32,000 bases of DNA. Source: Crocosphaera subtropica ATCC 51142 (GTDB lineage Bacteria; Cyanobacteriota; Cyanobacteriia; Cyanobacteriales; Microcystaceae). The position numbers were made by a program, and so were the translations under genes. The notes under the pieces are model-generated. The model made no database searches and had not been told where the DNA came from. It saw only the letters and a list, made by a program, of their open reading frames with translations. This document shows, piece by piece, positions 5,231-30,448 of the stretch (position 1 is the first letter of the stretch; every line of letters begins with the position of its first letter). Where the stretch lies: positions 360,001 to 392,000 of the forward strand of contig NC_010546.1 in assembly GCF_000017845.1 (NCBI RefSeq). The letters are read 5' to 3'.

Positions 5231-5343
5231 ATGAATAAATCAGTCAAAAAAGCCATGGGTGCGAAGCTAGAGTTATCTAGTTTAACGATAAAACTTTGAG
5301 AACTTCTAGAGGATGTCTGCAAACTGTTACAATTATTGACAAT

Positions 5344-5490
5344 TTAACAAAGATTGAAAATTATATCAAACGTTGGGGCGGGTATCATTTCACCTCTAAA
5401 GTCTAATAATTGTACAATAACTAAGTAAGCAACTGCCAAAAAAATAGAAATAGCCCCAGTTATAATAGCGACAATTTTACCTTGATTCAT
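5344..5490 (-). CDS. Possible 48-aa single-pass membrane micro-protein (absent from the supplied ORF track)
   Basis: Manual translation gives MNQGKIVAIITGAISIFLAVAYLVIVQLLDFRGEMIPAPTFDIIFNLC. It contains one clear hydrophobic helix and sits in an otherwise empty 370-nt gap. The ribosome-binding site is weak. Confidence 0.3.
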   Translation of the reverse strand: MNQGKIVAIITGAISIFLAVAYLVIVQLLDFRGEMIPAPTFDIIFNLC

Positions 5491-5601
5491 AATTAATGGA
5501 TTCTCTTTTAAACAATCTGATTATCTATTATAGTTTCTAGATTCAAATGATGTATGATAAAAGCAATTTAAAAAATTCTCTTAACAAGGAGATAAAATAA
5601 G

Positions 5602-6036
5602 ATGTCTGAACTTAGTATGATCAAAGGTAGTTGTCTATGTGGTGCGGTCAATATTTCAACCTCTAGTATTAATCATCATCTAGCAGCCTGTCATTGTAAT
5701 ATGTGTCGTAAATGGGGTGGTGCAGCTTTATTAGGAGTTGAATGTAACGATGGTATCAGTTTTGAAGGGGAAGAAAATATTCAGGTATATCAATCTTCAC
5801 AATGGGCAGAACGTGGATTTTGCCAAAAATGTGGTAGTAATCTATTCTATAGATTAAAAGAAAATAATCACTACTATGTACCAGTAGGAATTTTTGATAA
5901 TGCTGATAATCTCGTTTTTGATTTAGAGGTTTTTATTGAAGAAAAGCCAAACTATTACTCTTTTGCCAATGAAACTAAGAAAATGACAGGAGAAGAATTA
6001 TTTTCTATGTTTTCATCTTCATCAGAAAAAGAATAA
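5602..6036 (+). CDS. GFA-family (glutathione-dependent formaldehyde-activating / CENP-V-like) zinc protein
   Basis: The cysteine pattern CLCGAV...CHCNMCRKWGG...FCQKCGSNLFY is diagnostic of the GFA domain. Confidence 0.8.
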   Translation: MSELSMIKGSCLCGAVNISTSSINHHLAACHCNMCRKWGGAALLGVECNDGISFEGEENIQVYQSSQWAERGFCQKCGSNLFYRLKENNHYYVPVGIFDNADNLVFDLEVFIEEKPNYYSFANETKKMTGEELFSMFSSSSEKE

Positions 6037-6081
6037 TTTGTCATTTGACCAGTAATGATAAAATAATATAACTGTTAGTGA

Positions 6082-6435
<354 letters not shown>

Positions 6436-6440
6436 AAATA

Positions 6441-6464
6441 GGGGCTTCCTATTATTAAGCCCCC
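6441..6464. terminator. Hairpin between convergent genes, a likely bidirectional terminator
   Basis: GGGGCTT (6441-6447) pairs with AAGCCCC (6458-6464), followed by a T-rich stretch (ATTTATTTTGTT). Confidence 0.5.
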
Positions 6465-6495
6465 AGATTTATTTTGTTATTAATTGGGTATTAAT

Positions 6496-6858
6496 TTAGT
6501 AAAAAGCATCTAAATCAATCGCTTTTGATCCACCCTCTTTTAACTGTTTTAATAAGCTTTCCAGTTGAATCCAAACTAAAGCAGCAATAAAGATGGTCAT
6601 GGGTAAAGAAATAGCATAAGATAGCCAACGATCAAAGAGAAAAATCTCTAATCCTGCGGATAAAAATACACAAATACCAATACAAATACCAAAAAAGGGT
6701 AACTGTAACCCTGAACCTTTTAGCATCTGATCAATGGGCTTTTTCAACATCGCATTAATCTGAGATTTTAGGGTTGCTTCAAACGCTAAACCACAGGTCA
6801 GACCAATAAATAGGCCGGCAACTACTAGAAAATAAGGAGGCTGAGGAAAATAGTACAT
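6496..6858 (-). CDS. Hypothetical integral membrane protein (about 3 TM segments)
   Basis: 120 aa with three hydrophobic segments. It lies 27 nt downstream of the ABC1 kinase gene on the same strand. Confidence 0.55.
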   Translation of the reverse strand: MYYFPQPPYFLVVAGLFIGLTCGLAFEATLKSQINAMLKKPIDQMLKGSGLQLPFFGICIGICVFLSAGLEIFLFDRWLSYAISLPMTIFIAALVWIQLESLLKQLKEGGSKAIDLDAFY

Positions 6859-6885
6859 AAAAGGCAGGGCTTGAATAATGATAGG

Positions 6886-15920: not shown

Positions 15921-16769
15921 ATGTTTGACAACAAACCAATTAAAACAACAACAGGAGTGGTCACCGTGTCCGCCCTGATGCTACTCTCGTTTACCAGTAT
16001 AGGGGCTACCCAAACAGAAAGGGGTAGAAATAACGCCAATCAACCAGAAGAATCCATCGCTGACAGCATTCCCGATCGCCGTAAAGGTGGAGCCAGTCGT
16101 AGACCCCAAACCTCGCAAAATACAGAGGATGAGGAGGTAGTCCAAGCTCCCCAAAGACGTAAACCGGCAGCTAGTCGTAACGATAATAATCAATGTAACT
16201 TTAATCCTCAAGAACTGGTGGCTTTGATCCCAGAAAATCTTCACGGAAAAACCACAGAGCTTTCCCCTACATTATACTTTTCCGTTCCTGCTATTACAGC
16301 CAGCACAGAAATCGAATTTGTTCTACGAGGTCCTGAGGATGAATTAATAGAAAAACAAACTTTCTCAGGCAAAGGACAAGCAGGAATTATGAGCTTAAAA
16401 TTGCCCAAAGTTCCCCACCTTTCCTCGGCTAACTCCGAGAAAACTTACCATTGGTATTTATCAATTATTTGTAATCAAAGCGATCGGGCTGATGATGTAG
16501 TCGTCGAAGGATTACTACAACCCATTACCCTCCAATCGAACCTACTCCAACAGCTAGAAACGGCTACCCTGGAAGAACGGATCAAACTGTATCAATCCCA
16601 TGATCTTTGGCACGAAAGGTTACATACCTTAGCCAAAATGAGGCGATCACAACCCCAAAATACTCAACTCGCTCAAAAACTGGGAGAGTTACTTGAATCG
16701 GTTCAATTAGATCCCACCATCGGACAAAAACCCTTATTAGAGACTGAAATGCTCAGTTTAAGCCATTAA
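15921..16769 (+). CDS. DUF928-family secreted protein
   Basis: It has a signal peptide and basic GGASR/AASR motifs. It follows the family pattern as I recall it: C...LVALIPEN...TTELSPTLYFSVP...IEFVL...YHWYLSIIC...LYQSHDLWHERLHTLA...LLESVQL. Confidence 0.75.
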   Translation: MFDNKPIKTTTGVVTVSALMLLSFTSIGATQTERGRNNANQPEESIADSIPDRRKGGASRRPQTSQNTEDEEVVQAPQRRKPAASRNDNNQCNFNPQELVALIPENLHGKTTELSPTLYFSVPAITASTEIEFVLRGPEDELIEKQTFSGKGQAGIMSLKLPKVPHLSSANSEKTYHWYLSIICNQSDRADDVVVEGLLQPITLQSNLLQQLETATLEERIKLYQSHDLWHERLHTLAKMRRSQPQNTQLAQKLGELLESVQLDPTIGQKPLLETEMLSLSH

Positions 16770-17500
16770 TGACGGTAAAAAAGGGATTTGAGGAAAAATT
16801 GCGGTAGCACTAACATTCTTCGCCAACGCCAAGGTTCTTGATAGAGCCGATATAACCACTCTAAATTATTATTCCGTAACCACCCAGGGGCCCGACTCTT
16901 TGTTCCTGACCAAATATCAAAACTACCCCCAACCCCTACCCAAATAGCTTGGGGACACAACGCTCTATTTTCACGAATCCATACTTCTTGGCGAGGAACC
17001 CCCAACCCCACCAAAATTAAGCGAGGTTGTTGTATTTTTAGGGTATTTTTCCAGGTTTCCTGTTCTTCTGGAGAAAGATACCCATGAGCGGTAATAATAT
17101 TGGCTTCAGGCAATTTGCCACGCCAATAGTCTGCGGCCGCTGCTGTTACTCCTGGTTTACCCCCATAAAAAGCAATCACATTCCCTTGACCATTGCTTCC
17201 TAACCCTTCAATCAACGACTGGGCTAATTCAATCCCCGGACAGCGTTGCTGTTGTTGTCCTCTCATTTTTAAATAGATAACCACACCAGCCCCATCAGGA
17301 ATAACTAAATCCGCTTCTTTAATGATTTTAGCTACTAGTGGGTCTTTTTCGGCTAACATTGCCATTTCTGCGTTTAGGGTGACCACATGAACCCCTTGCT
17401 CTTTCTCAAGGCATTGCAGCAACCAACCAGTATAGTTATCCGATAAGTGAACCGGTAAACCGAGAACAGACGAAGTTTTAGGGGAAGTTCGCATGACCAT
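16766..17500 (-). CDS. WecB/TagA/CpsF-family (GT26) glycosyltransferase
   Basis: Typical GT26 features are present: VHVVTLNAEM, ADLVIPDGAGVV, LILVGLGVPRQEVW, GVGGSFD, LEWLYRL. I use the Met at 17500 (245 aa). The longer ORF to 17614 would overlap the upstream gene by 56 nt. Confidence 0.8.
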   Translation of the reverse strand: MVMRTSPKTSSVLGLPVHLSDNYTGWLLQCLEKEQGVHVVTLNAEMAMLAEKDPLVAKIIKEADLVIPDGAGVVIYLKMRGQQQQRCPGIELAQSLIEGLGSNGQGNVIAFYGGKPGVTAAAADYWRGKLPEANIITAHGYLSPEEQETWKNTLKIQQPRLILVGLGVPRQEVWIRENRALCPQAIWVGVGGSFDIWSGTKSRAPGWLRNNNLEWLYRLYQEPWRWRRMLVLPQFFLKSLFYRH

Positions 17501-17558
17501 AGACCATATCTCTACATAGGGAACAGGGAATAAGTTGCTTTTCAAAATCCACAGGCGA

Positions 17559-19718
17559 TTACCTTCTACCTTCTGCCTCCTGACTCCTACCTTCTTTATC
17601 CTTAAAACGGACAAAATTGGGCAAAATCATCATACTAATTAACCCTAACCAGGCTAAACCACTAATCCAGTTGGCCCAAGCTAACCCATGAAAGGTCGTG
17701 CGAATAGTATACGTTCCTGGTTTAAGGTCTAACCCTGTTAAATTGTAGTCTCGATAATAAACAGCAAAAATCTTGTTAAATCCCTTATCATTAACCCACA
17801 CTTTTAACATATCGGGATAATACAGCACAGGTAACTGGACAATATTAGCTTCTTCTGAAACGGTAATTTCACACACCGTACTTACGCCTTGTTGCTGACA
17901 GTTTTCTTCTGTTTCCGTGACGGGGATTAAGGTATGTTTAGGTAACATTCCATCTAAAAACAGTTGCTTAACTCGGATATTCAACGGTTGACCATTACGA
18001 GTCTCCCCTTGAACTACAAATTTTAAGCCAAAATCATGACTAGATTCGGGGAGGGATGGCAAGGGAACCTCTCCTTTTAACTCACGGGAAACCAGGGGAA
18101 AAGAACCAATCACTTTACCGTCAAGATGAACTTCTAAGGTAGCAGTCTCAGCAATATTTTCTAAGGGGACTTCTCCTTCGATAAACAGTACAGGGTTTTC
18201 TCCTGGTTCCCAAACTGGATAACGCAATTCTGCTTCTAGTAGTAAAGGATGATTAACAAAGGTATTCCAGGTGCTATATCCAGGAGTCCAGTCAGGATGT
18301 AATAAGGGTAATTCTGCTTTTCCATAAAGGGTTGTAATGGGACTGCGATCGAGATAATCTAATGCCCCAGAATAGCGAAATAAAGGTTCTTGTAGTAATT
18401 GATCAACGGTTAAGGTTCCCTTCGCTGCAGGAAGCCAAGGACGACTCGCAAAGACAATAATTAAAATCCCTAGAATGAGATGACGACGGTCTAATCTTCT
18501 CCTAAAGATTAACACCGTAGCGTAGGCTGTTAATAATGCCCCTGCCCACATGACATGAGTTAAAAGACGAAAAGTGAATTGTGTCACCCATAATTGACGG
18601 GGTAAAATAGCCCAAATATTAATGGGACTCCAAGTCAAAAATAGAGCCACAGCGAATACCCAAAGTAGAGCAATCATGTAGGGACGAGTTTTGTTGAGTT
18701 TAGCAGGGATAGAAGGAGAAAAATAATAATAGTACATCACTACAAGCCAAGCCCCTAATAAAATCCATCCTATAGCAGGATGTAAACCATAAGTCCCTGC
18801 TAAACCTGTTTCCGAGGGTTCAGGGGGTAAAGATGTGGGAGAGAGTAAATTAGCGAGGGGTGTATAATTATTGGTATAAAAAGGATTATTACGGTTAAGT
18901 TGTTTAGAAATAGCTAAATGAGAAGAAATAAAAACAACAGGAGCGAGGAAATAAAATCCTAATAACCATCCTAAACCGTAACTTTGAAGAGGAGGGATTA
19001 AACGGGAAAAGGTAAAATCAGTTTTCCTTGTTTGTATAACAACAATTAAGGCTAAAAGGGCAAAAAATAAGGTGCCATAAACAAAGGTAATAATATGAGT
19101 AACGGCTAAACAAAACCAACTAATGGCACTGAAAATAAGATAACGCCGTTTTCCTGTTAAGTAACATTGAATGACATAGTATAAAACAACGGGTAAAATA
19201 CCTTGGGCAATGGCTTCGGTAAAGGCTCCTCTGGCATGAATATTATTTAAAAAATAAGGAGCCGACATATAAGCAACTCCTGCTAAAATTGCAGCAACAC
19301 GGGATTGCGTCAATTGACAGCTTAAACGATAGATATAAAATCCCCCGATGGTTAAAGCTATTATAATCACTAATTTATACGCTTCGTAAGGATTGGTTGG
19401 GGTCACTAATTTATAAAACCAACCTCCGATAAAATAGGGCAACTGACTATAAAATTGAAACCCAGGATAACGCCAACTATTATTTTCAAGGGGGGCAACT
19501 CTTAAGGGGAATTGTCCTTCTATAATTGCGGTTCTCGCTTGGGCAATATATCCAACATGGGAAGCAGTATCATTAAAGTTTCCGTTAATAATTTGTGATG
19601 AGGCCATAGGTGCCATTAATGATATGGCAACAATGCTATATAACAGTAAAATGCCTATAGCAAGACGATGTTTATATAGCCATTGGTGAACAGATTTTAT
19701 GATATCTTTTAAAGTCAT
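17559..19718 (-). CDS. Large polytopic membrane protein, GT-C-like putative glycosyltransferase with a C-terminal soluble domain
   Basis: 719 aa. The first 430 aa or so contain about 12 TM segments and the remaining 280 aa are soluble. The architecture resembles the cyanobacterial proteins often mislabelled PTPS-related membrane proteins. The function is inferred from architecture and context only. Confidence 0.5.
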   Translation of the reverse strand: MTLKDIIKSVHQWLYKHRLAIGILLLYSIVAISLMAPMASSQIINGNFNDTASHVGYIAQARTAIIEGQFPLRVAPLENNSWRYPGFQFYSQLPYFIGGWFYKLVTPTNPYEAYKLVIIIALTIGGFYIYRLSCQLTQSRVAAILAGVAYMSAPYFLNNIHARGAFTEAIAQGILPVVLYYVIQCYLTGKRRYLIFSAISWFCLAVTHIITFVYGTLFFALLALIVVIQTRKTDFTFSRLIPPLQSYGLGWLLGFYFLAPVVFISSHLAISKQLNRNNPFYTNNYTPLANLLSPTSLPPEPSETGLAGTYGLHPAIGWILLGAWLVVMYYYYFSPSIPAKLNKTRPYMIALLWVFAVALFLTWSPINIWAILPRQLWVTQFTFRLLTHVMWAGALLTAYATVLIFRRRLDRRHLILGILIIVFASRPWLPAAKGTLTVDQLLQEPLFRYSGALDYLDRSPITTLYGKAELPLLHPDWTPGYSTWNTFVNHPLLLEAELRYPVWEPGENPVLFIEGEVPLENIAETATLEVHLDGKVIGSFPLVSRELKGEVPLPSLPESSHDFGLKFVVQGETRNGQPLNIRVKQLFLDGMLPKHTLIPVTETEENCQQQGVSTVCEITVSEEANIVQLPVLYYPDMLKVWVNDKGFNKIFAVYYRDYNLTGLDLKPGTYTIRTTFHGLAWANWISGLAWLGLISMMILPNFVRFKDKEGRSQEAEGRR

Positions 19719-19732
19719 ATAAGTTAAAATTC

Positions 19733-21505
19733 TTAATTAAGTTTATAAACAAAAATAATATCGTTTCGAGAAAAAATCGGTTGATTGTTGATTAAAAAGC
19801 TCCAATTTTCAGTAGCAACAGGATTATTCTCTTTTTGAGCATGAATTTGTTGTTTTACGGTACTATCGATAAGCAGATACTCATACGGCAGTTGGGTGAT
19901 GGTTTCTGTTTCTGGATTAAATCTAGGTTGAGCATAATAGGATTGAATATTGATAGGATAGTTTTCGATTTTACTTAATAAATCAAGATATTGGACAAAA
20001 CCAATATTAACCCCAAAAAGTTGATAAGTAATGACATTGTTATTATCCTCTGGTAAGCGGTTCTGGGTTAGCAAGTATTTTACCCCATGCTCGGTTTCTT
20101 GTCCCCAGTTAAGGGTTGAATCATCGGCTAATTTCCATTTTTCTTGATTCCAAAGTGGGTTAACATAACTCAAAGATTGACTAATTCCTACAATTCCTAA
20201 ATAGACATAAAGGGTTAATCCTCCTAGTAAGACGTATTTTTGCCATTTATGTTTCAAAATGACTGTTAAACTAGCTATTAATAAGTAAACAAATAATACA
20301 AGAGGATAAAAATATCGATAACCAATAATAAAACGACTATCTTTAGTTAACCAAAAATAAATGAGAGGATAAGCACTGCCTAAAATGATTAAAGGTAAGA
20401 TTTTTTTATTGATATAGTTTGTAATTACTATCTTCTGATAACTAATGTTATAAATTAAAGCTAACAATAAAAATAATCCGATGATAAATAGACCAGGATT
20501 TTCTTTAAACCAAAATATTTTAGTTAAATAGCCTAAAGAAGTCATTGACATGAATTGTCCATTCCAAAAAGGTTCTCTAATACCTCCTGCTGTACTCAAA
20601 TTCATCTTAATGCCATCAATATAAGCCCACAAATTGTCAATTAAAGATTGATTAGGTAAATTTCTAAATGCCCACCGATACATTAAACTGATTAATAAAG
20701 CTTGAATGATTAAACTAAAAACAGCTAACACTGAAAACTGTTTCAACTTTTGTTTTTTATTTTCTTTGAATAGATATATGGCAATAAAAATATAAGTCCC
20801 TATCGTAATAGGAAGTAGAATTAAATTACTAAATTTTGCATTAAGTGCTATAAAAAAACAAACTGTAAAAACAAGAAAGTGAAATCCTAAAAAATTATCA
20901 TCAGTGTTAATAACAGTATCATAAATCACCATCAACGTCAGAATAGATAATAAAGCATAGACACTAACAGCAACATCAAAAGCAATTAAAAAATTATGAC
21001 TATAAAAGCTAGGAGAGAAAACATATAATACAGCAAATACTAAAGAAATTTGAGAAGGAATTTTCTTGAAAATAAAAGTATATAAATAGAACCAGATAAA
21101 AATAAAACTATTAAAAATCAAATAGGGTAAACGTAAACTCAATAATAATCGATAAAAATTATTAGCATTGTCCATTAAGAGAGTATAACCTAAATTGAAA
21201 GCTGCTAGACGTGCCTCAATACTCTCTTCTCCACTAACAATATTAATACTAGGAACTTCTAAATTATAATTAGGAAAAAATACACTCAGAATAAGGGAAT
21301 TAATTAACTTAAAAAATAGAGGATGTTCTTGATTTAATCCTAAACCTTGGGTATAAGCATACGCCGCACCAATATAAGCAGATTCATCTGAAGTGATAGA
21401 TGTTTGATCTATCAAATGAAAACCAATGATATAATAAAGGACTATCAAAAAAATAAACAATAATTGCCTAGGAAATTCCTCAAGACGAATATATTTAAAC
21501 CCCAT
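19733..21505 (-). CDS. GT-C-fold membrane glycosyltransferase (ArnT/PMT, GT39/GT83-like)
   Basis: 590 aa with many TM segments. The first extracytoplasmic loop carries an acidic D-E motif (SITSDESAYIGAAYAY) of the kind seen in ArnT/PMT enzymes. Confidence 0.6.
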   Translation of the reverse strand: MGFKYIRLEEFPRQLLFIFLIVLYYIIGFHLIDQTSITSDESAYIGAAYAYTQGLGLNQEHPLFFKLINSLILSVFFPNYNLEVPSINIVSGEESIEARLAAFNLGYTLLMDNANNFYRLLLSLRLPYLIFNSFIFIWFYLYTFIFKKIPSQISLVFAVLYVFSPSFYSHNFLIAFDVAVSVYALLSILTLMVIYDTVINTDDNFLGFHFLVFTVCFFIALNAKFSNLILLPITIGTYIFIAIYLFKENKKQKLKQFSVLAVFSLIIQALLISLMYRWAFRNLPNQSLIDNLWAYIDGIKMNLSTAGGIREPFWNGQFMSMTSLGYLTKIFWFKENPGLFIIGLFLLLALIYNISYQKIVITNYINKKILPLIILGSAYPLIYFWLTKDSRFIIGYRYFYPLVLFVYLLIASLTVILKHKWQKYVLLGGLTLYVYLGIVGISQSLSYVNPLWNQEKWKLADDSTLNWGQETEHGVKYLLTQNRLPEDNNNVITYQLFGVNIGFVQYLDLLSKIENYPINIQSYYAQPRFNPETETITQLPYEYLLIDSTVKQQIHAQKENNPVATENWSFLINNQPIFSRNDIIFVYKLN

Positions 21506-21786
21506 AAAGCTCCCATCAACCAGGATTAGTCCACCCTAAAGTCTAGTGAATAAGGTTTATCATACGTTGGATAATTTGTCAAAAAAAATTGAAACTAAAT
21601 TTTAGTCAATGGTAAGAAAAGCCTAGACAAAGACTTATCATACAAAGGTTTCAGTAATTAGTAATCTGCTCATGTTTCGGGTTATGGTATATTCATTATT
21701 AATCTGAGGAACTTACAAGAGAGGCAGAAGAGTCGTATAATAAAGCATTTAGCTTAATCTATTAAGATAGGCAATTGAATCAAACT

Positions 21787-22662
21787 ATGGCAATTAAGGA
21801 TTATTTAATTAATAAACTGCGTAGAGTCTTAGGCATTATTGATATTTTAGCAGCCCTTGATCAAGTTCTAAAAGATCAAAAGCGAGAGTTAATTAAAGAA
21901 ATTCTCAATCAAATTAAACCAGGAAGTATAGTTGAATGTTGTATCAATGATGTGGAACTTTTAGCCCCCATTGAACCCTTACAAGTCTATCAACATTGTG
22001 TTTTTCCTAATGCAGAACAAAAACTTAATTTTTTGATTGAAAATCATTGCGCTGAGTGGTTATGTTCTCATATAAACTATGGAGATACTGTGCTAGATAT
22101 TGGGGCTGCTTTTGGGGTCATTAGTTTTCCGTTAGCTAAAGCAGTGGGTAAAAAAGGTCATATTTATGCTTTTGAACCCGCTAAAAATACCCAAGATACC
22201 TTACAAAAAATTCTCAGTTTAAATCACATTTCTAATATTACTGTAGTTACTCAAGCAATTTCCGACAAATCTGGAATTGCTGAATTTATTGAATATAGCC
22301 AAGATAATGAGTCAAGTTGGGCTTCAGACACTTCAACTTTAGCCTCAGATAATAATATTGATGAGTACAAGAAGTTTACCACTTATCAAGTTTCTGTGAT
22401 AACTTTAGACGAATATATAGCTAAAAATGCCATAGAACCATCAGCGATAAAAATGGATATAGAAGGCTTTGAATTTTATGCCTTACAAGGTGGAAAACAA
22501 ACATTAGAAAAATATTTACCTTACCTATGTATTGATATTCATGCTGATGTTAAAACTGGAAAATCCTCTTTAGTGGAAATTGAACCTTTTTTACAATCTC
22601 TTGGTTATAGTTTGACGATGGAAGAACATACCCTCTATGGAATTCCCCCTGAAAAAACATAA
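21787..22662 (+). CDS. FkbM-family SAM-dependent methyltransferase
   Basis: It has the SAM motif VLDIGAAFG and the FkbM signature IKMDIEGFEFYAL. I prefer the ATG at 21787 to the TTG at 21775. Confidence 0.8.
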   Translation: MAIKDYLINKLRRVLGIIDILAALDQVLKDQKRELIKEILNQIKPGSIVECCINDVELLAPIEPLQVYQHCVFPNAEQKLNFLIENHCAEWLCSHINYGDTVLDIGAAFGVISFPLAKAVGKKGHIYAFEPAKNTQDTLQKILSLNHISNITVVTQAISDKSGIAEFIEYSQDNESSWASDTSTLASDNNIDEYKKFTTYQVSVITLDEYIAKNAIEPSAIKMDIEGFEFYALQGGKQTLEKYLPYLCIDIHADVKTGKSSLVEIEPFLQSLGYSLTMEEHTLYGIPPEKT

Positions 22663-22746
22663 CGATATACAATAGGCTCATCATTTATATTATTAAGCAT
22701 CAGTTATTGATTTTCAGTGTCCCAACAACCTAAGAGGCTGTGAACA

Positions 22747-23748
22747 GTGTTAATTTCCATTATTATTCCCTGTTATAACGAACAAGAAGTTATTCAAATC
22801 ACTCATAATCGTTTAGTATCCGTTTTAGAAAAAATAACGCCCCAATTTGAACTAATTTACGTTGATGATGGTAGCCAAGATCAAACGGCTGATCATTTGC
22901 GACAATTACAGCAAAAAGACGAACGGGTCAAAGTTGTTTTATTATCTCGCAATTTTGGGCATCAAATGGCAGTAACAGCAGGATTAGACCATATTTGTGG
23001 CGATGCGGTTGTCTTAATTGATGCGGACTTGCAAGATCCCCCAGAAGTCATTCAAGAGATGATCGATCGCTGGTATGAAGGGTATGATGTTGCTTACGGA
23101 GTCCGTACCGATAGACAAGGAGAAACCCCTTTTAAACTATGGAGTGCTAAAGCATTTTATCGCATCATGAATCGTCTGTCTGATGTTACAATTCCCCTCG
23201 ACACAGGAGACTTCCGTTTAATGGACCGTCAGGTGGTAGAAGCGTTAAAAATGATGCCGGAACGCGATCGCTTTTTACGGGGAATGGTGAGTTGGGTGGG
23301 GTTTCGTCAAGTAGCTGTTCCCTATCAACGGAGTCCCCGTTTAGCTGGAGTGAGTAAGTATCCTTTGTTTAAAATGATTCGCTTTGCAGCCGATGGTATT
23401 TTATCCTTTTCTTTAGTTCCTTTAAGAGTCGCTATTTGGGCTGGTTTATTCACCGTTGCTTTATCTATCATTGGCATTATTTATGCTTTATTTGTGCGAC
23501 TTTTTACCCTGAGTTGGGTTCCTGGGTGGACAATTTCTTTTATTGCTATTTTATTTATTGGTGGCATTCAATTAGTCTTTTTAGGAGTCATTGGTGAGTA
23601 TATTGGACGGATTTATCGTGAAGATAAACGTCGTCCTCTCTATTTAGTCCGAGAACGATTAGGATTTCAATTTGACAATCAAAATAGTCATCGTCACCGA
23701 GGTAAAAAAGTTACCTACGCTGGAGAAAATTCCAACGAAATGATTTAA
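22747..23748 (+). CDS. GT2 polyprenyl-phosphate glycosyltransferase (GtrB/ArnC/DPM1-like) with 2 C-terminal TM helices
   Basis: It starts at a GTG preceded by AAGAGG. Motifs ISIIIPCYNE, YVDDGSQD and IDADLQDPPE are present, followed by two hydrophobic helices and a basic tail. Confidence 0.85.
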   Translation: MLISIIIPCYNEQEVIQITHNRLVSVLEKITPQFELIYVDDGSQDQTADHLRQLQQKDERVKVVLLSRNFGHQMAVTAGLDHICGDAVVLIDADLQDPPEVIQEMIDRWYEGYDVAYGVRTDRQGETPFKLWSAKAFYRIMNRLSDVTIPLDTGDFRLMDRQVVEALKMMPERDRFLRGMVSWVGFRQVAVPYQRSPRLAGVSKYPLFKMIRFAADGILSFSLVPLRVAIWAGLFTVALSIIGIIYALFVRLFTLSWVPGWTISFIAILFIGGIQLVFLGVIGEYIGRIYREDKRRPLYLVRERLGFQFDNQNSHRHRGKKVTYAGENSNEMI

Positions 23749-23790
23749 TAATTGAAGACATAATTAATGACATAGGAGAGAAAATTAACC

Positions 23791-24999
23791 TTGAATAATA
23801 TTTGTCGTGTTTGTGATTCAACTAATTTAGAATTAGCTATTGATTTAGGACATCAACCCTGGTGTAATAATTTCTTGAAACTTGAAGAAGTGGGACAAGA
23901 ACCCTTTTATCCCCTCAGAGTTTTATACTGTCATAATTGTGGGACGGTTCAATTAGATTATACCGTTAAAAAAGAAATTATGTTTGGGGATCATACCTAT
24001 CTTTCTGGAGTGACAAAATCCCTCAGTGAACACTTTAAAAATGTTGCCCATGAAGTGGATGATCGCTTCTTTAAAAATACCCCGAATAAGTCCGTTTTAG
24101 ATATTGGTTCCAATGATGGAACACAACTGAAACATTTTCAAGCTTTAGGATATGATGTTTTAGGGGTAGAATCTTCAAAAACCACTGCAAAAATAGCCGA
24201 AGAAGCAGGAGTTCCTACGGTCAATGATTTCTTTAATTTAGAGGTAGTCAAACGCCTTGATCGTAAATTTAACGCTATTAACGCAGCCGGTGTCTTTTTC
24301 CATTTAGAAGAGTTACATTCTGTCACTGAAGGAATAAGAGAAGCATTAACAGAAGATGGTGTTTTTGTAGTTCAATTCCTCTATATGAAGCGAATTGTTG
24401 ATAATTTAGCTTTCGATCAAATCTATCATGAACATCTATTATATTACAATCTTAACACCATTGAAGTTTTATTAAATCGTCATGGTTTATCCATGTTTGA
24501 TGCTTATTTATCACCCATTCATGGTGGATCAATTATCGGGTTTGTTACTCACAAAGGAGAGAAACAAGCAAGCGATCGCTTACAAAAAATGCGTCAAGCA
24601 GAAGTAGAGGAAAAAAGTAATGAATTTTCTACTTATTTAGACTTTTCTAAGCGTATTGAACAGATGAAAGCTGATAACTTAGCTTACTTGGATAAAGCTA
24701 AAAAAGAAGGTAAAAGTGTCTGGGGTTTTGGCGCACCGGTTAAAGGTAATACCATGTTAAACTACTTCGGTGTGGGGACACAATACCTTGATTATTTAGT
24801 AGAAAAAAATGAACTGAGACGGGGACTTTATTCACCTGGAATGCACATTCCTATTGTCATTGAAAAAGAATTAACCGAACTTCCTGACATTTATTATGTA
24901 TTAGCTTGGAACTTCAAAAAAGAAATTTTAGCTAATAATCAGCATTTGATTGATAAAGGAATTGAATTCTATTTTCCTGTTAATCCTCAAGACATTTAG
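23791..24999 (+). CDS. NDP-hexose C-methyltransferase-like enzyme (zinc-ribbon N-domain plus class I SAM methyltransferase, TylCIII-like)
   Basis: It starts at a TTG preceded by AGGAGA. The pattern CRVCDS...LGHQPWCNNF...CHNCGTVQL forms a zinc ribbon. The SAM motif is VLDIGSNDGT, and the C-terminal domain is typical of sugar C-methyltransferases. Confidence 0.75.
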   Translation: MNNICRVCDSTNLELAIDLGHQPWCNNFLKLEEVGQEPFYPLRVLYCHNCGTVQLDYTVKKEIMFGDHTYLSGVTKSLSEHFKNVAHEVDDRFFKNTPNKSVLDIGSNDGTQLKHFQALGYDVLGVESSKTTAKIAEEAGVPTVNDFFNLEVVKRLDRKFNAINAAGVFFHLEELHSVTEGIREALTEDGVFVVQFLYMKRIVDNLAFDQIYHEHLLYYNLNTIEVLLNRHGLSMFDAYLSPIHGGSIIGFVTHKGEKQASDRLQKMRQAEVEEKSNEFSTYLDFSKRIEQMKADNLAYLDKAKKEGKSVWGFGAPVKGNTMLNYFGVGTQYLDYLVEKNELRRGLYSPGMHIPIVIEKELTELPDIYYVLAWNFKKEILANNQHLIDKGIEFYFPVNPQDI

Positions 25000-25798: not shown

Positions 25799-27307
25799 AT
25801 GACCCTGAAATCATCTAACTATCAATTTACTTATACCCCTCATTATAAACCTAATCAACTAATTTGTGGTCATGGACAAACAGCAATTATTACAGGATGG
25901 ACCGTCAGACAAACTATTGCTAAAAAATTGAACCCAGAAGATTACGCTGTTATCGGAAATTTATACAGTCCCACAAGAGGAATTAGTCCTTTAATTCGTA
26001 ATTTATTAGCGAATCCTCATGTGAGATTTTTAGTTATTTTAGATGCAACCAAAGAAGACAAAAATGCAAGAGGATGTCAATGTTTATTAGACTTTTTACA
26101 ACAGGGTTTTACTCAAGGAACCAGTGATACAGGTCGAGATATTTGGGTAATAAATTCTGAGATTACTGGTTATATTGACATAGAAATTGATGCTAATGCT
26201 TTAGAAACTTTGCGTCAATCTCTTGACTATAAATTAGTAAACTCTATAAGTGAAGCAATCAATTTTATTAAAGAATTTAGTCAACAAAAAAACAAACAAC
26301 CTTGGGGAGAACCTTTAACTTTCCCCATGATGGAAACTACTCCTACAGTATTACCTGGTCCTAGATATGGTCATCGTATTGAAGGGAAAACCATTGCAGA
26401 AACTTGGGTTAAAATATTGCATCGAATTAAAACAACAGGAACCATTAGACCAACTCAATATGGACAATGGCAAGAATTAATTGATTTGACCTCTATTATA
26501 ACAGATGAACCCTTAAATTTCTATTTTCCTAGTTCTAATTATTTACCTATAAAACGAGATTTTATTAATGATTATATTGGACAGATTTTAGACGATGCAC
26601 CCCAAAAAGAAGGGGTAAAATACACTTATGGTCAAAGGTTGCGATCGTGGTTTGAACGAGATCAAATTCAACAAGCAATTGATAAATTAATAACTGATAA
26701 AGACTCATCTAGAGTGGTGATGTCTCTTTGGGATGTGAAAGATTATGAAAATAATGATAGTCCTCCTTGTCTTAATCATATTTGGGTAAGAATTGTTGAT
26801 AATGAGTTATCATTAACAGCAACTTTTCGTAGTAATGATATGTTTTCTGCTTGGCCAGCAAATGCAATGGGTTTAAGAGCATTACAAAAACATATTATAG
26901 AACAAATAAATAAAACTTCTAACCATAATTTTCAATTCGGACCATTAATTATTATCAGTCAAAGCGCACATATTTATAGTGATTGTTGGGAACACGCAGA
27001 CAAGGTTATTGAAACAGAATATACTAGAATATGTCAGCAAAAAAACTATACTGATCCCAGTGGTAGTTTTTTGATTTCTATTAAAAATAATCAAATTATA
27101 GTTGAACATATTACCCCAGGTTCAGGGGAAGTGGTTAACTGTTATTCAGGAAAAACAGCGAAACAAGTTTACCAAAAAATTGCTGATACTTGTCCTGGTC
27201 TTGAAGTCAAACACGCTATGTATTTAGGGTCAGAATTACAAAAAGCAGAAATCTGTTTAGTTACAAATACAGATTTTTATCAACAAGATATACCTCTTGT
27301 TTTTTAA
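25799..27307 (+). CDS. Three-domain thymidylate-synthase-like fusion: MtrA-like N-domain, methanogen-type TS core, and a DUF4346-like C-domain
   Basis: 502 aa. The core carries TS-fold motifs SRVVMSLWDV, SPPCLNH (catalytic Cys), TFRSNDMFSAWPAN and SQSAHIY. The first 165 aa or so resemble MtrA (AIITGW...GNLYSPTRGISPLIRNLLANPHVRFLVIL). The last 90 aa or so resemble DUF4346 (DPSGSFLISI...HAMYLGSELQKAE). Confidence 0.75.
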   Translation: MTLKSSNYQFTYTPHYKPNQLICGHGQTAIITGWTVRQTIAKKLNPEDYAVIGNLYSPTRGISPLIRNLLANPHVRFLVILDATKEDKNARGCQCLLDFLQQGFTQGTSDTGRDIWVINSEITGYIDIEIDANALETLRQSLDYKLVNSISEAINFIKEFSQQKNKQPWGEPLTFPMMETTPTVLPGPRYGHRIEGKTIAETWVKILHRIKTTGTIRPTQYGQWQELIDLTSIITDEPLNFYFPSSNYLPIKRDFINDYIGQILDDAPQKEGVKYTYGQRLRSWFERDQIQQAIDKLITDKDSSRVVMSLWDVKDYENNDSPPCLNHIWVRIVDNELSLTATFRSNDMFSAWPANAMGLRALQKHIIEQINKTSNHNFQFGPLIIISQSAHIYSDCWEHADKVIETEYTRICQQKNYTDPSGSFLISIKNNQIIVEHITPGSGEVVNCYSGKTAKQVYQKIADTCPGLEVKHAMYLGSELQKAEICLVTNTDFYQQDIPLVF

Positions 27308-27352: not shown

Positions 27353-28039
27353 ATGACTATCTTAAGTGATCAAGATATAAGGCAAGAAATAGGGATCAAT
27401 ATATATATCTATCCCTATAAAAAAGATAATCTTAAAGGATCTAGTTATAATTTAACTGCCAGTCAATTAGCTTGGGATTTGTCTACTAGAAAAAGTATTT
27501 ATGATAGCAGTCAAAACAAAATTACCATTCAACCTAAGACAACTGCTTTAATAGAAACTAATGAAAGTATTTGGGTATCTCAAAAAATATCTGGAACTTA
27601 TTATTCCCGTGTTAGAGAAGTTTCAAAGGGTACTGGACATATTAGTACAACACTTGATCCTAACTATATTGGATGTTCTTTAATTGCGTTACGTAATCAT
27701 AGTCAATCACCCATAGAAATAACACCTGAAACTGATCCTTTTGTCACCCTTATTTTCCAATATTTACATACACCATCAACCAAAGAACAAACTAGGAATA
27801 CTTCAGGACGAAGAGATTTACTTAGCACACTTGGAATACAATTGAATAAAGAAGAAACAGAATTTCTAGATCGAGAGTTTATGAATAATAAAGATGCACT
27901 ATTGAATAAATTACTAGAATGTGATGATTATAAAATCATACAAAAAAACGAGAGCAAGAAGAAAAAGAGAGACTTGAACAAATATCAAATCAAAAGAAAA
28001 ACCTTTTTTTTAAAAAACAATAACAATATCTTATTTTGA
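27353..28039 (+). CDS. dCTP-deaminase-fold (dUTPase superfamily) protein, divergent, with a charged C-terminal extension of about 80 aa
   Basis: The N-terminus ILSDQDI...INIYIYPY...LKGSSYNLTAS and the core TLDPNYIGCSLIALRN align by eye with the Dcd blocks (LCDRDI, IDPGWSGCIVLEFYN). The Dcd catalytic Glu position is Ala. The tail is Lys-rich (KKKKRDLNKYQIKRK). Confidence 0.65.
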   Translation: MTILSDQDIRQEIGINIYIYPYKKDNLKGSSYNLTASQLAWDLSTRKSIYDSSQNKITIQPKTTALIETNESIWVSQKISGTYYSRVREVSKGTGHISTTLDPNYIGCSLIALRNHSQSPIEITPETDPFVTLIFQYLHTPSTKEQTRNTSGRRDLLSTLGIQLNKEETEFLDREFMNNKDALLNKLLECDDYKIIQKNESKKKKRDLNKYQIKRKTFFLKNNNNILF

Positions 28040-28278: not shown

Positions 28279-28707
28279 ATGCAGATTAAAATCATTAAAT
28301 TAAAAGAAAAAGCAATTATTCCAAAATATGAACATGATAATGATTCAGGACTTGATTTAGTTTCTACAGAAACTGTAGAAATACCATCAGGAGAAAGTAA
28401 ATTAGTTAAAACAGGAATTTCCATTGAATTACCTCCTAATACTGAAGCACAAATCCGTCCGAGAAGCGGACTCGCATTAAAACATCAAATCACTGTTTTA
28501 AACACCCCAGGAACTATTGATGAAGGGTACAGAGGAGAAATAGGGGTTATCTTAATTAATCATGGTAAAAGATCCTTTAAAGTCACTGAAGGAATGAGAA
28601 TTGCTCAGATGGTAATTGCTCCTGTTATTCGAGTAAAAATCCAAGAAGTTGAGCAATTAAGTGATACAATCAGAGGACAAGGTGGCTTTGGTTCAACAGG
28701 GGTTTAA
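28279..28707 (+). CDS. dut: dUTP diphosphatase (trimeric dUTPase)
   Basis: 142 aa with all the classical motifs: [40 protein letters not shown] and [10 protein letters not shown]. Confidence 0.95.
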
Positions 28708-28724: not shown

Positions 28725-29009
28725 ATGAATATCCCCCAATTTTTTGAGTGGGACGAAAATAAACGTCAAGCTAATATAGAGAAACATGGGATAGACTTTG
28801 CTGACTTAGAGAGGATTTTTACTAATCCATTTATACAGCGTATCGATAACCGTGTTAATTATGGGGAAACAAGAATTATTCTCTTAGGTGAATTAGACGG
28901 AGTTATCCTCTATATTGTATATACTTGGCGTGGGGATCTCTGTCGGTTTATTAGTGCTAGGAGGGCCAACCAACGTGAAAGAAACAAATATTACCAGAGT
29001 GTCTCGTGA
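28725..29009 (+). CDS. BrnT-family (DUF497) type II toxin
   Basis: FEWDENKRQANIEKHGIDFADLERIF...RFISARRANQRERNKY matches the BrnT family pattern. Confidence 0.85.
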   Translation: MNIPQFFEWDENKRQANIEKHGIDFADLERIFTNPFIQRIDNRVNYGETRIILLGELDGVILYIVYTWRGDLCRFISARRANQRERNKYYQSVS

Positions 29010-29181
29010 AGAATGGGCAAAAATGAAGGGTGAAACCGATTGGGATAAGATTAAAGGGATGACTGATGAGGAGATCGAAAAAAATGCCTTAGATGATCCC
29101 GATAGTCAACCTATTCCTGATGAAATGTGGGAAGATGCTCAAGTTGTTTTTCCTCAACAAAATACCGCAGTCAACAGTTAA
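28975..29181 (+). CDS. BrnA/DUF4415-like antitoxin (start uncertain)
   Basis: It contains GETDWDKIKGMTDEEIEKNALDDPDSQPIPDEMWEDA, which is typical of DUF4415 partners of BrnT. I assume the GTG at 28975, which overlaps the BrnT 3' end. An ATG 16 codons downstream is an alternative start. Confidence 0.7.
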   Translation: MKETNITRVSREEWAKMKGETDWDKIKGMTDEEIEKNALDDPDSQPIPDEMWEDAQVVFPQQNTAVNS

Positions 29182-29905: not shown

Positions 29906-30448
29906 ATGACCTTTCTTGAAGAACAAAGACCCACTTGGGACGAATACTTTATCATGATAGCTAAATTAGCTGCTACTCGCTCAACCTGTTTGGCTTTCCC
30001 AGTGGGTGCAGTGATCGTCAAAGATAGACAATTATTAGCTACGGGGTATAATGGCTCACCATCAGGAACAGCACACTGTACAGCACAAGGATTCTGTTAT
30101 CCTGGACTCGATAGCTGTGATAGTTCTAGTAGTCTCCCTTCCCGTGCCATTCACGCTGAAGCCAATGCCATCGCCCAAGCAGCTAAATATGGCATTTCGA
30201 CCCACGGAGCTAGTATTTATGTTACCTTAGAGCCATGCGTTTCTTGTTTAAAATTAATTATCTCTGCAGGCATTAAAGACGTTTTTTATGAAACAGGGTT
30301 TAACAAAGGAGAAAAAGCTCTCGTTAGGGATGCTTTTCTCAAAGATGGATTAGTCAATTTAACCCAGATTCACTTATCCTCAGAAACGGCAAAACGTGCT
30401 TCCATTTTTCTCTTAAACCCCACATCAGTTGCCAGAGAAATGACTTAA
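29906..30448 (+). CDS. Zinc-dependent dCMP deaminase (CMP/dCMP deaminase family, ComEB-like)
   Basis: 180 aa. It begins WDEYFIMIAKLAATRSTC and has the zinc motifs HAEANAI and PCVSCLKLI. Confidence 0.9.
   Translation: MTFLEEQRPTWDEYFIMIAKLAATRSTCLAFPVGAVIVKDRQLLATGYNGSPSGTAHCTAQGFCYPGLDSCDSSSSLPSRAIHAEANAIAQAAKYGISTHGASIYVTLEPCVSCLKLIISAGIKDVFYETGFNKGEKALVRDAFLKDGLVNLTQIHLSSETAKRASIFLLNPTSVAREMT

Follow-up and report, generated by a model that had tools for sequence, protein, structure and literature searches.

A putative thymidylate synthase of Crocosphaera subtropica with an archaeal-type core between MtrA-like and DUF4346 domains, and its split counterparts

Background

Two classes of enzymes are known to synthesise thymidylate, ThyA and ThyX, and both are drug targets. 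The present analysis concerns cce_0382, a protein of the cyanobacterium Crocosphaera subtropica ATCC 51142 whose gene lies at positions 25799 to 27307 of the stretch of 32,000 nucleotides that was analysed (contig NC_010546.1, positions 360,001 to 392,000 of the forward strand; hereafter, the window). In this protein, a thymidylate synthase (TS) core of the archaeal type is preceded by a domain that resembles MtrA and followed by a DUF4346 domain. We interpret it as a putative synthase of deoxythymidine monophosphate (dTMP), whose flanking modules are the counterpart of a two-domain protein that is encoded beside a short TS in other genomes.

Several described systems can be compared with this protein. 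The canonical ThyA (EC 2.1.1.45, PF00303), as represented by the enzymes of E. coli and M. tuberculosis, has the same fold and eight catalytic residues with equivalents in cce_0382. Nevertheless, the two are only ~20% identical, the N-terminal third cannot be aligned, no Trp80/Trp83 motif is found in the linear alignment, the interface arginine pair is partly kept, the C-terminal closing segment is absent and cce_0382 has two extra domains. The dihydrofolate reductase-TS (DHFR-TS) of protozoa and plants also carries an N-terminal cofactor-handling domain on a TS and has a similar total length, but the N-terminal domain of cce_0382 is not a DHFR (there is no match to that family and the root-mean-square deviation (rmsd) is ~19-25 Å) and cce_0382 has a third, C-terminal domain. 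MtrA (PF04208; structures 5LAA, 5L8X and 8Q3V), which is the corrinoid subunit of the Na+-pumping methyl-tetrahydromethanopterin:coenzyme M methyltransferase and has cytoplasmic homologues as well, shares with cce_0382 a Rossmann-like domain, the Thr53/Ser, Gly57 and Asn64 positions and part of a conserved meander. In contrast, the N-terminal domain of cce_0382 scores below the Pfam cut-off and lacks His84, Glu54, the membrane helix and the mtr operon. The methanogen/archaeal TS (TIGR03283) provides the best model for the core of cce_0382 and has in common with it the short length of the core and the Cys, Arg-Ser-x-Asp, Asn and His-x-Tyr motifs; yet cce_0382 falls below the equivalog cut-off of that model, its host is a folate-using cyanobacterium and its core is held between the MtrA-like and DUF4346 domains. 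The archaeal-type TS enzymes remain essentially uncharacterised (PMC9931769, PMC9012536). The flavin-dependent TS, ThyX, probably plays the same physiological role and is the alternative enzyme of other cyanobacteria (PMC5954106), but its fold and chemistry are unrelated.

The members of the family of cce_0382 are publicly annotated as 'thymidylate synthase' or 'DUF4346 domain-containing protein', so the sequence family itself was already known. In the literature searched, there was no paper on DUF4346, cce_0382 or MJ0757, nor any linking TS with MtrA, Mtr or corrinoids. This agrees with the first-pass annotation of this DNA, made from the sequence alone, which knew of no biochemical characterisation of the architecture.

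Results and discussion

Domain organisation of cce_0382

The protein encoded at 25799-27307 on the forward strand is 100% identical to the database entry of cce_0382 from C. subtropica ATCC 51142, which identifies the window as part of a cyanobacterial chromosome. Its modules and the linker between the first two are the following:

25799-27307, forward strand: complete gene of the three-module thymidylate synthase-like protein cce_0382, 502 amino acids (open reading frame with ATG start and its translation; 100% identical database protein)
25832-26293, forward strand: MtrA-like Rossmann domain, residues ~12-165 (family profile against MtrA structures; NF002128; alpha/beta unit 17-162 of the model)
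26294-26365, forward strand: linker between the N-terminal domain and the core, residues 166-189, with a conserved PWG..P..FP segment (without regular secondary structure in the model)
26366-27037, forward strand: archaeal-type TS core, residues 190-413 (TIGR03283, PF00303, hhalign to E. coli ThyA, Foldseek)
27053-27289, forward strand: C-terminal DUF4346 domain, residues 419-497, made of three strands and then two helices and carrying the motif HAMYLGSELQKAE...YQQD (PF14251, stand-alone model)

The first-pass annotation had proposed these three domains on the basis of short motifs, all of which are present (SPPCLNH at residues 321-327, FRSND at 343-347, WPAN at 352-355, AHIY at 390-393 and GISPLIRNLLANPHVRFLVIL at 61-81). 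Profile searches and the predicted structure confirm the assignment, with matches far above chance. The AlphaFold2 model, for which a mixed alignment of 94 sequences was used as input, has a predicted local distance difference test score (pLDDT) of 91.2 and a predicted TM-score of 0.75, and displays folded units at residues 17-162, 190-413 and 423-489. Within the linker, W169, F175 and P186 are invariant among cyanobacteria.

The thymidylate synthase core

The core is recognised by PF00303 over residues 271-410 (E = 1e-17; 64.7 bits, above the cut-off of 24.3). Its best model is the methanogen-type TIGR03283, positions 3-198 of which (out of 201) match residues 194-397 with an E value of 8e-40 and a score of 136.5 bits, under the equivalog cut-off of 174.55. 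The core had been described at first sight as archaeal or methanogenic rather than bacterial, and these matches agree. The comparison of a predicted structure with ThyA and T4 dCMP hydroxymethylase, which had also been suggested, places the core in the TS superfamily fold (E ~1e-12). When searched against the PDB with Foldseek, ThyA, T4 dCMP hydroxymethylase, MilA and AfhB, a recently solved phage dCMP hydroxylase, match the core with E values of 2e-12 to 1e-10, and the target-normalised TM-score reaches 0.82 (AfhB).

The alignment of the core with residues 88-250 of E. coli ThyA (hhalign, probability 97%) provides equivalents for eight residues of that enzyme: Tyr277 (Tyr94 in ThyA), Cys324 (Cys146), Arg344 (Arg166), Ser345 (Ser167), Asp347 (Asp169), Asn355 (Asn177), His391 (His207) and Tyr393 (Tyr209). 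Conservation was counted in 128 full-length representatives that are 31-63% identical to the window protein. Each of the eight residues is kept in 124-128 of them, and Trp203, Glu226, Tyr259, Tyr275, Arg280 and Trp311 are conserved to the same extent. Two sites stand out:

26768-26770, forward strand: codon of Cys324, predicted to be the catalytic nucleophile and aligned with Cys146 of E. coli ThyA (Cys in 126 of the 128)
26828-26863, forward strand: block R344-S345-N-D347...W-P-A-N355, equivalent to Arg166, Ser167, Asp169 and Asn177 of ThyA

Within the latter block, R344 is found in 126 representatives, S345 in 128, D347 in 124 and N355 in 127. The corresponding ThyA residues bind the dUMP phosphate (Arg166/Ser167), contact the pterin (Asp169) and select uracil (Asn177). 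The earlier argument that this asparagine points to uracil, dCMP hydroxymethylases having an aspartate instead, is upheld by the conservation of N355 and by the specificity residue of the T4 dCMP hydroxymethylase, D179 (title of PDB entry 6L18). The core ends shortly past His391-Ile-Tyr393; the last ~50 residues of ThyA are absent, as they are in the methanogen type.

When matches are normalised by size, the best neighbours of the core are not ThyA but two PDB entries from 2025, 9IQU and 9IQC, which are compact dCMP hydroxylases with a TS fold (AfhB). One of them has flavin adenine dinucleotide bound, and they indicate that a short TS fold is able to support folate-independent chemistry.

The MtrA-like domain and the former cobalamin site

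The relationship of the N-terminal domain to MtrA is faint in single-sequence searches, in which PF04208 matches residues 50-106 with an E value of 0.083 (13 bits, cut-off 25) and TIGR01111 attains 12.3 bits, below its cut-off of 249. The NF002128 model (a 390-residue 'MtrA' model) matches residues 43-178 with an E value of 7.6e-14. A profile made of 21 sequences of the N-terminal domain matches the MtrA structures 5LAA, 8Q3V, 5L8X and 9QTQ with E values of 9e-11 to 7e-5 (9e-11 to 4e-8 for the first three), and the match spans nearly the entire soluble MtrA domain. Precomputed PF04208 matches also exist in the non-cyanobacterial members of the three-module family, hereafter called the long TS. 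The resemblance to MtrA noticed in the first-pass annotation was therefore real. The two flanking domains had further been described there as related to pterin or one-carbon carriers; their homologies stand, but the notion of MtrA as a pterin binder does not, MtrA being a corrinoid (vitamin B12) protein.

The binding of cobalamin by MtrA has been described in structural detail. His84 provides the cobalt ligand and forms a hydrogen bond with Glu54. Lys52-N, Thr53, Gly57-O and Asn64 fix the nucleotide tail, the base lies sandwiched between Tyr18 and Val61, and a 'meander', GAIPF(Y/F)xEN, is also involved. In the apo-protein, malate fills the site of the cobalamin phosphate (Wagner et al., PMC4915002). 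Two stretches of cce_0382 correspond to parts of this site:

25955-26017, forward strand: GNLYSPTRGISPLIRNLLANP (residues 53-73), the most conserved stretch of the N-terminal domain, aligned to a loop and a helix through which MtrA binds the nucleotide tail and phosphate of cobalamin
26048-26083, forward strand: TKEDKNARGCQC (residues 84-95), a loop at the position of the His84 loop of MtrA (hidden Markov model (HMM) and MAFFT alignments)

The first of them aligns to K52-T53...G57, V61 and N64 of MtrA, and its residues G53, Y56, G61, N68 and N72 are conserved in at least 90% of the representatives. The Glu54 of MtrA aligns to Pro58 of cce_0382, and to Pro or Ala across the fused family. In the second stretch, the fused family has lost the Gly-His dipeptide of MtrA (the HMM alignment places the 'hi' of MtrA in an insertion that the family lacks) and a histidine is only sporadically present in the loop (14/128). 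The one near-invariant residue of this loop is D87 (96% of the representatives; invariant in the alignment of 94 sequences). As shown by these alignments, the fused family has kept neither the cobalt ligand His84 nor the relay Glu54. The best-conserved residues of the N-terminal domain (Gly53, Tyr56, Ser57, Gly61, Leu65, Asn68, Asn72, Asp87 and Gly-Tyr-Ile-Asp 124-127) map, in the alignment, onto the former tail pocket and the meander of MtrA. This suggests that the site probably retains a role, be it in binding a ligand or in contacting the core. Neither an mtrA-H operon nor a C-terminal membrane anchor is found at the cce_0382 locus, where the TS core follows the domain and the neighbours are genes of dNTP metabolism. 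Since the score cut-off, the His84/Glu54 pair and the operon or membrane anchor all fail, this domain should, on sequence grounds, be named MtrA-like and not MtrA.

The DUF4346 domain and its architectures

PF14251 (PterinBD-DUF4346) matches residues 419-497 with an E value of 2e-25 (89.7 bits against a cut-off of 29.6), and the domain modelled on its own has a pLDDT of 83.5. The conserved motif of the family, H-x2-YLG-x-EL-x-KAE...Y-x-QD, is found in cce_0382, whose polar motif is made up of Asp419, Gly422, His472, Tyr475-Leu-Gly477, Glu479-Leu, Lys482-Ala-Glu484, Tyr494 and Gln496-Asp497. No structural analogue was identified in the PDB by sequence, and the Foldseek matches (best E value 0.03) were all to ribosomal proteins with a high rmsd. 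As the tail of the alignment between the core and ThyA hinted at a match, DUF4346 was considered as a displaced C-terminal segment of ThyA, but a direct hhalign comparison gave a probability of 0.4% and the idea was rejected.

Genome contigs were scanned with a DUF4346 motif derived from an alignment of the C-terminal domain, and the matches were then analysed with Pfam. Four architectures were found: (i) MtrA-like-TS-DUF4346, the family of cce_0382; (ii) Pterin_bind (PF00809)-DUF4346, proteins of ~490-535 residues from methanogens; (iii) MtrA (PF04208, E = 7e-46)-DUF4346, a protein of 295 residues in a metagenome-assembled genome (MAG) of Saccharibacteria (locus L067); and (iv) stand-alone DUF4346 proteins of ~130-165 residues in Prochlorococcus, Synechococcus and Cyanobium. 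The polar motif is identical across all four, which implies that DUF4346 may well have one molecular function in every architecture. The first-pass annotation had described DUF4346 as fused to pterin-binding enzymes; its association with one-carbon-carrier enzymes is supported, as the domain is joined to a corrinoid domain, to a pterin-binding barrel or to this TS. The methanogen proteins correspond to TIGR00284 ('dihydropteroate synthase-like'), and this explains the weak TIGR00284 matches that were obtained. In four methanogen MAG loci (L072, L078, L082, L085), no gene for TS, dCTP deaminase (DCD) or thymidylate kinase (Tmk) lies within 5 kb of the Pterin_bind-DUF4346 gene, so a unified three-component model that would include these proteins is not supported.

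The stand-alone proteins of picocyanobacteria (L077:4818-5318 from Synechococcus RCC307, and L070, L071, L075, L079, L081, L083) have a beta-sheet insertion. In RCC307, the gene is located between a FemAB-like gene and a convergent gene for a B12-binding radical-SAM protein; 1.5 kb upstream of it, there is a gene for a RibD_C protein (a DHFR-like reductase).

A split system with an MtrA-DUF4346 protein and a short TS

In the Saccharibacteria MAG, the genes at 3869-6871 of the locus code for DCD, MtrA-DUF4346, a short TS and thymidylate kinase, in this order, and a DeoC gene comes next. The short TS has 258 residues and matches TIGR03283 (E = 5e-43). A metagenome scan that used an alignment of three sequences as the query recovered 28 further genes for two-domain MtrA-DUF4346 proteins, 39-66% identical, whereas the single L067 protein used as the query found none. 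The metagenome split loci are shown as L087-L113, and L067 alone has a taxonomic label. Downstream sequence is available for 25 of the metagenome loci; in 24 of them, the short TS gene is the direct downstream neighbour of the MtrA-DUF4346 gene, and the count becomes 25 of 26 when L067 is included. The exception, L114, has only 0.5 kb of downstream sequence. The DCD gene is found upstream of MtrA-DUF4346 in 17 of these loci and downstream of TS in three, and two loci encode DCD-MtrA-DUF4346 fusions of ~513 residues (L104:3392-4930 and L105:798-2345). Tmk follows the TS gene in at least eight split loci. As a control, TS, DCD or Tmk were found near an ordinary mtrA in 0 of 52 loci from the same scan.

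The contrast between 25/26 and 0/52 loci argues that the three modules are obligate partners and form a conserved functional unit, whether fused or split. The first-pass annotation had allowed for extra domains that are dispensable; comparative genomics contradicts this, as they are conserved down to 31% identity and are co-encoded with TS when unfused. Among the 29 split partners, His84, Thr53, Gly57 and Asn64 are kept in 29/29, and Tyr18 is Tyr in 26 and Phe in three. Glu54 is likewise found in 29/29, but this residue was fixed by the search pattern and its count is biased. As the cobalamin-binding residues examined are all kept, the split partner looks like a real corrinoid protein. The operon gives the impression that this protein specifically serves the synthesis of thymidylate. 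No description of such an operon was found in the literature searched, and it could represent a third mechanistic class of thymidylate synthesis. Compared with cce_0382, the split system has the same three modules, the same kind of pathway neighbours, a short TS of the TIGR03283 type and an identical DUF4346 motif; it differs in that two polypeptides are involved, the MtrA and DUF4346 domains are contiguous, the PF04208 match is strong (E = 7e-46), His84 and Glu54 are kept and the short TS has Lys-Thr at the positions of Arg344-Ser345. The possibility that the fused N-terminal domain is nearer to the MtrA domain of the split partners than to ordinary MtrA was rejected, the median scores being 31.1 and 30.7 bits, respectively.

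Distribution and pathway linkage of the long TS

A search among cluster representatives returned 2,439 of them at E < 1e-3 and 380 at E < 1e-30, and the best 150 are mostly full-length matches in a single stretch, 450-550 residues long. The long TS is present in many cyanobacterial orders with 65-88% identity to the window protein, and also in UCYN-A4, the endosymbionts of Epithemia and Rhopalodia, and Prochloron. Beyond cyanobacteria, it is found in Chloroflexi (Oscillochloris, Viridilinea, Dehalococcoidia), in Patescibacteria/Parcubacteria of the candidate phyla radiation (CPR) and in DPANN archaea (Woese-, Nano- and Aenigmarchaeota). A single distant query (P0169) revealed non-cyanobacterial members, while a profile made from distant representatives returned cyanobacterial proteins only. 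The three-module architecture is found in bacteria and archaea alike and persists at identities as low as 31%.

That even strongly reduced endosymbionts have kept the long TS speaks for a housekeeping role. In a census of clusters of orthologous groups in 31 cyanobacterial genomes, 23 have ThyX and eight have ThyA (PMC5954106), which is consistent with an either/or distribution of both enzymes; we infer that the long TS is the 'ThyA' of those eight genomes. Picocyanobacteria are expected to use ThyX (PMC5954106). The genera of the ThyX lineage (Prochlorococcus, marine Synechococcus) are not found among the long-TS matches and only have the stand-alone DUF4346, and the Pfam scan of cce_0382 contains no match to the ThyX family.

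The genomic context of the long TS also recurrently involves the metabolism of its presumed substrate. In the fetched loci, a gene of the dUMP/dTMP pathway lies within 5 kb of the long TS in 27 of 50 cyanobacterial loci and 14 of 18 others. The dCMP deaminase gene adjoins the TS gene in UCYN-A4 and other cyanobacteria; orthologues of the DCD-like gene that follows TS in the window are found in the same position in other cyanobacteria (L007, L014, L016, L020); one locus has a dCMP deaminase-TS-DCD operon with touching genes (L001), two loci of Woesearchaeota have a TS-DCD-NT5C operon (L004, L005), and DCD is located 0.5-2.5 kb from the TS gene in two others (L002, L006). There is even a TS-DUF4346-DCD fusion of 698 residues (P0409, L003:6001-8097). 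This recurring linkage supports dUMP as the substrate and dTMP as the product. The first-pass annotation had predicted dUMP as the substrate, and the conserved linkage or fusion with dCTP deaminase, dUTPase, dCMP deaminase and Tmk backs that prediction.

In viral contigs, a scan with the single protein found no long TS, and a scan with the DUF4346 pattern found one contig with a long TS and one fragment. The former, a 23-kb contig classed as viral (L167:2756-4264; IMG/VR UViG_3300046049_000081), encodes a complete long TS with strong scores for all three modules. The gene may belong to a cyanophage or a prophage, or the contig may have been classified wrongly. Two MAGs assigned to Tatlockia sp. 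(L046) and Candidatus Gracilibacteria (L026) contain a long TS whose DUF4346 region is 58-61% identical to that of the window protein; since such an identity is typical of cyanobacteria, binning contamination is more likely than a real occurrence in those taxa.

Function of cce_0382 and alternative explanations

We favour the interpretation that cce_0382 is the dTMP synthase of the cell, that it uses a pterin as the donor and that its flanking domains are scaffold or ligand-binding modules descending from a corrinoid partner (for the statement as a whole, a probability of about 0.55). Its first part, a dTMP synthase acting on dUMP, we consider quite likely. In that case, the core (residues 190-413) would bind dUMP through Arg344, Ser345 and Asn355, Cys324 would attack C6 of dUMP, and C5 would take a one-carbon unit from a pterin held by Asp347, which in a cyanobacterium would most likely be 5,10-methylene-tetrahydrofolate. 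Tyr277, His391 and Tyr393 would then complete a ThyA-type chemistry leading to dTMP. As comparative genomics shows, the MtrA-like and DUF4346 domains correspond, in fused form, to a two-domain protein that is specific to this system and that other lineages encode immediately upstream of a short TS of the same type. Since His84 and Glu54 have been lost, the fused enzyme would no longer use His-ligated cobalamin; the flanking modules would probably be an obligatory structural or ligand-binding scaffold, and they may cap the active site or bind the tail of the donor, thus replacing the C-terminal ~50 residues and the Trp80/Trp83 region of ThyA.

Several points weigh against this interpretation. 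The activity, donor and product given for cce_0382 are predictions. Residues 190-270, the initial ~80 of the core, could not be aligned by sequence with residues 1-87 of ThyA, and no equivalents could be assigned to Arg21, Glu58, Trp80 and Trp83: E226 is a candidate for Glu58, and the Trp80/Trp83 folate wall is not recognisable, the linear alignment giving Ile263 and Asp266. A basic equivalent of the arginines 126 and 127 of the ThyA dimer is present in only 83 of the 128 representatives; at these positions, the window protein has Ser304 and Arg305. Moreover, the corrinoid iron-sulphur proteins are a noted exception that works without a protein ligand to cobalt (PMC4915002), so the loss of His84 is no proof that cobamide has been lost, and the conservation of the former cobalamin pocket argues that something may still bind there.

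These last points lead to a corrinoid-assisted synthesis that would also operate in the fused enzyme, with a cobamide (pseudocobalamin in cyanobacteria) bound base-off and His-off. The cobamide could be a methyl carrier, the CH3-Co(III) being attacked by the Cys-activated enolate of dUMP, or a donor of two electrons to the exocyclic methylene intermediate, and folate would in either variant not be oxidised to dihydrofolate. The split partner, with its His84, Thr53, Gly57 and Asn64 and its gene directly upstream of TS in 25/26 loci, speaks for it, as do the positions of Y56, S57, G61, L65, N68 and GYID 124-127 of the fused family, which map onto the tail loop and meander of MtrA, and the fact that DUF4346 is otherwise joined to corrinoid- or pterin-binding methyl-transfer modules. 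Yet, the entire fused family lacks His84 and Glu54, the pterin-contacting D347 is kept as in ThyA, neither a methyl-pterin-binding domain nor a reductive activation partner is seen in the operons, and many hosts belong to DPANN or CPR, groups whose capacity for making cofactors is generally low. We therefore regard a corrinoid mechanism in the fused enzyme as rather unlikely. A broader proposal is that the MtrA-type and DUF4346 modules are the cofactor half of a third route to thymidylate, in which the split protein would deliver methyl groups or electrons from its cobamide and the fused descendant would keep the relay, either with a His-off cobamide or with another ligand in the conserved pocket, as might be the case for the window protein. 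If true, such a route would leave the pterin unoxidised and dispense with dihydrofolate reductase. This route is an unlikely but consequential proposal.

Alternatively, the flanking domains could be ligand sensors or hold a second activity, such as allosteric control by dTTP/dCTP or the reduction and recycling of the pterin as a built-in DHFR. The conserved pocket corresponds to a phosphate-binding site that is occupied by malate in apo-MtrA (PMC4915002), DHFR-TS is a precedent for an N-terminal accessory domain on a TS, and many ThyX-type organisms lack a recognisable DHFR (PMC1971073), which makes pterin recycling a live issue. Nevertheless, cce_0382 has no NAD(P)H- or flavin-binding motif or Pfam match, the DHFR-TS structures that Foldseek returned are artefacts of length (rmsd 19-25 Å), TS is not a classical allosteric enzyme and the ancestral partner resembles a corrinoid protein rather than a reductase, so we have little confidence in a sensor or recycling domain. 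A plain ThyA-like dTMP synthase with removable baggage would be compatible with a core that has every alignable catalytic residue of ThyA and is covered by the 201 positions of the methanogen TS profile (TIGR03283) on its own. It is nonetheless very improbable, since the extra domains are under strong purifying selection (with invariant W34, G53, G61 and D87 in the N-terminal domain and D419 and H472 in DUF4346), the architecture is kept across bacteria and archaea to 31% identity and the unfused modules still adjoin the TS gene in 25/26 loci. Finally, the first-pass annotation had allowed for a product such as 5-hydroxymethyl-dUMP, as made by the phage dUMP/dCMP hydroxymethylases. The TS fold does support several chemistries, the structural neighbours of the core include T4 dCMP hydroxymethylase, MilA and the dCMP hydroxylase AfhB, and the C-terminal segment that closes over folate in ThyA is absent. 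However, a pyrimidine-modifying enzyme hardly fits a housekeeping gene that is retained in reduced endosymbionts, the presence of thymidylate kinase in the operons, the apparent complementarity with ThyX or the single long-TS locus found in two scans of viral contigs, and such a product seems highly improbable.

Under the favoured interpretation of a pterin-dependent dTMP synthase, the long TS is probably the only, if putative, dTMP synthase of its hosts. These include about a quarter of the sequenced cyanobacteria, the nitrogen-fixing UCYN-A/nitroplast lineage, diatom endosymbionts, Chloroflexi, CPR and DPANN. The ThyA-fold core of this family is never without both partner modules, one of which descends from a vitamin B12 protein. 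If these modules only scaffold the active site, the family illustrates what it takes to complete a minimal archaeal TS core; should they be involved in cofactor chemistry, they would reveal a new route to a DNA precursor. Such a route, if true, would bear on B12 dependence, DHFR-free folate recycling and the metabolism of ultra-small symbionts. For DUF4346 and the His-less MtrA-like domains, the family also offers a first lead to their function, and the same possibly holds for the unexplained 'cytoplasmic MtrA homologues'.

Other genes of the window

Downstream of cce_0382, the window contains further genes of dNTP metabolism:

27353-28039, forward strand: DCD-like (dCTP-deaminase-like) gene, 228 amino acids, 45 nucleotides past the TS gene (PF22769, E = 2.6e-10)
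28279-28707, forward strand: dUTPase gene (PF00692, E = 9e-34; NF001862, 191 bits against a cut-off of 103)
28725-29009, forward strand: BrnT-family toxin gene (PF04365, E = 6e-27)
28915-29181, forward strand: open reading frame for 88 amino acids that overlaps the BrnT gene and may code for the antitoxin
29906-30448, forward strand: dCMP/cytidine deaminase gene (PF00383, E = 5.5e-27)

The TS, DCD-like, dUTPase and dCMP deaminase genes are all on the same strand. The DCD-like protein is weakly matched by TIGR02274 (31 bits against a cut-off of 93) and has a Lys-rich C-terminal extension of ~80 residues. The BrnT toxin gene and the 88-residue reading frame interrupt the cluster between the dUTPase and dCMP deaminase genes.

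Upstream, a homologue of the glutathione-dependent formaldehyde-activating enzyme (GFA, PF04828) is encoded at 5602-6036 on the forward strand, 20 kb from the TS gene; it is related to one-carbon metabolism, yet has no link to the TS gene. The region directly upstream of cce_0382 and its neighbours (16766-24999) is a polysaccharide-type cluster that is apparently unrelated to the TS gene and encodes a WecG/TagA glycosyltransferase, a membrane protein with a PTPS-related domain, an FkbM methyltransferase, a GT2 glycosyltransferase and a C-methyltransferase.

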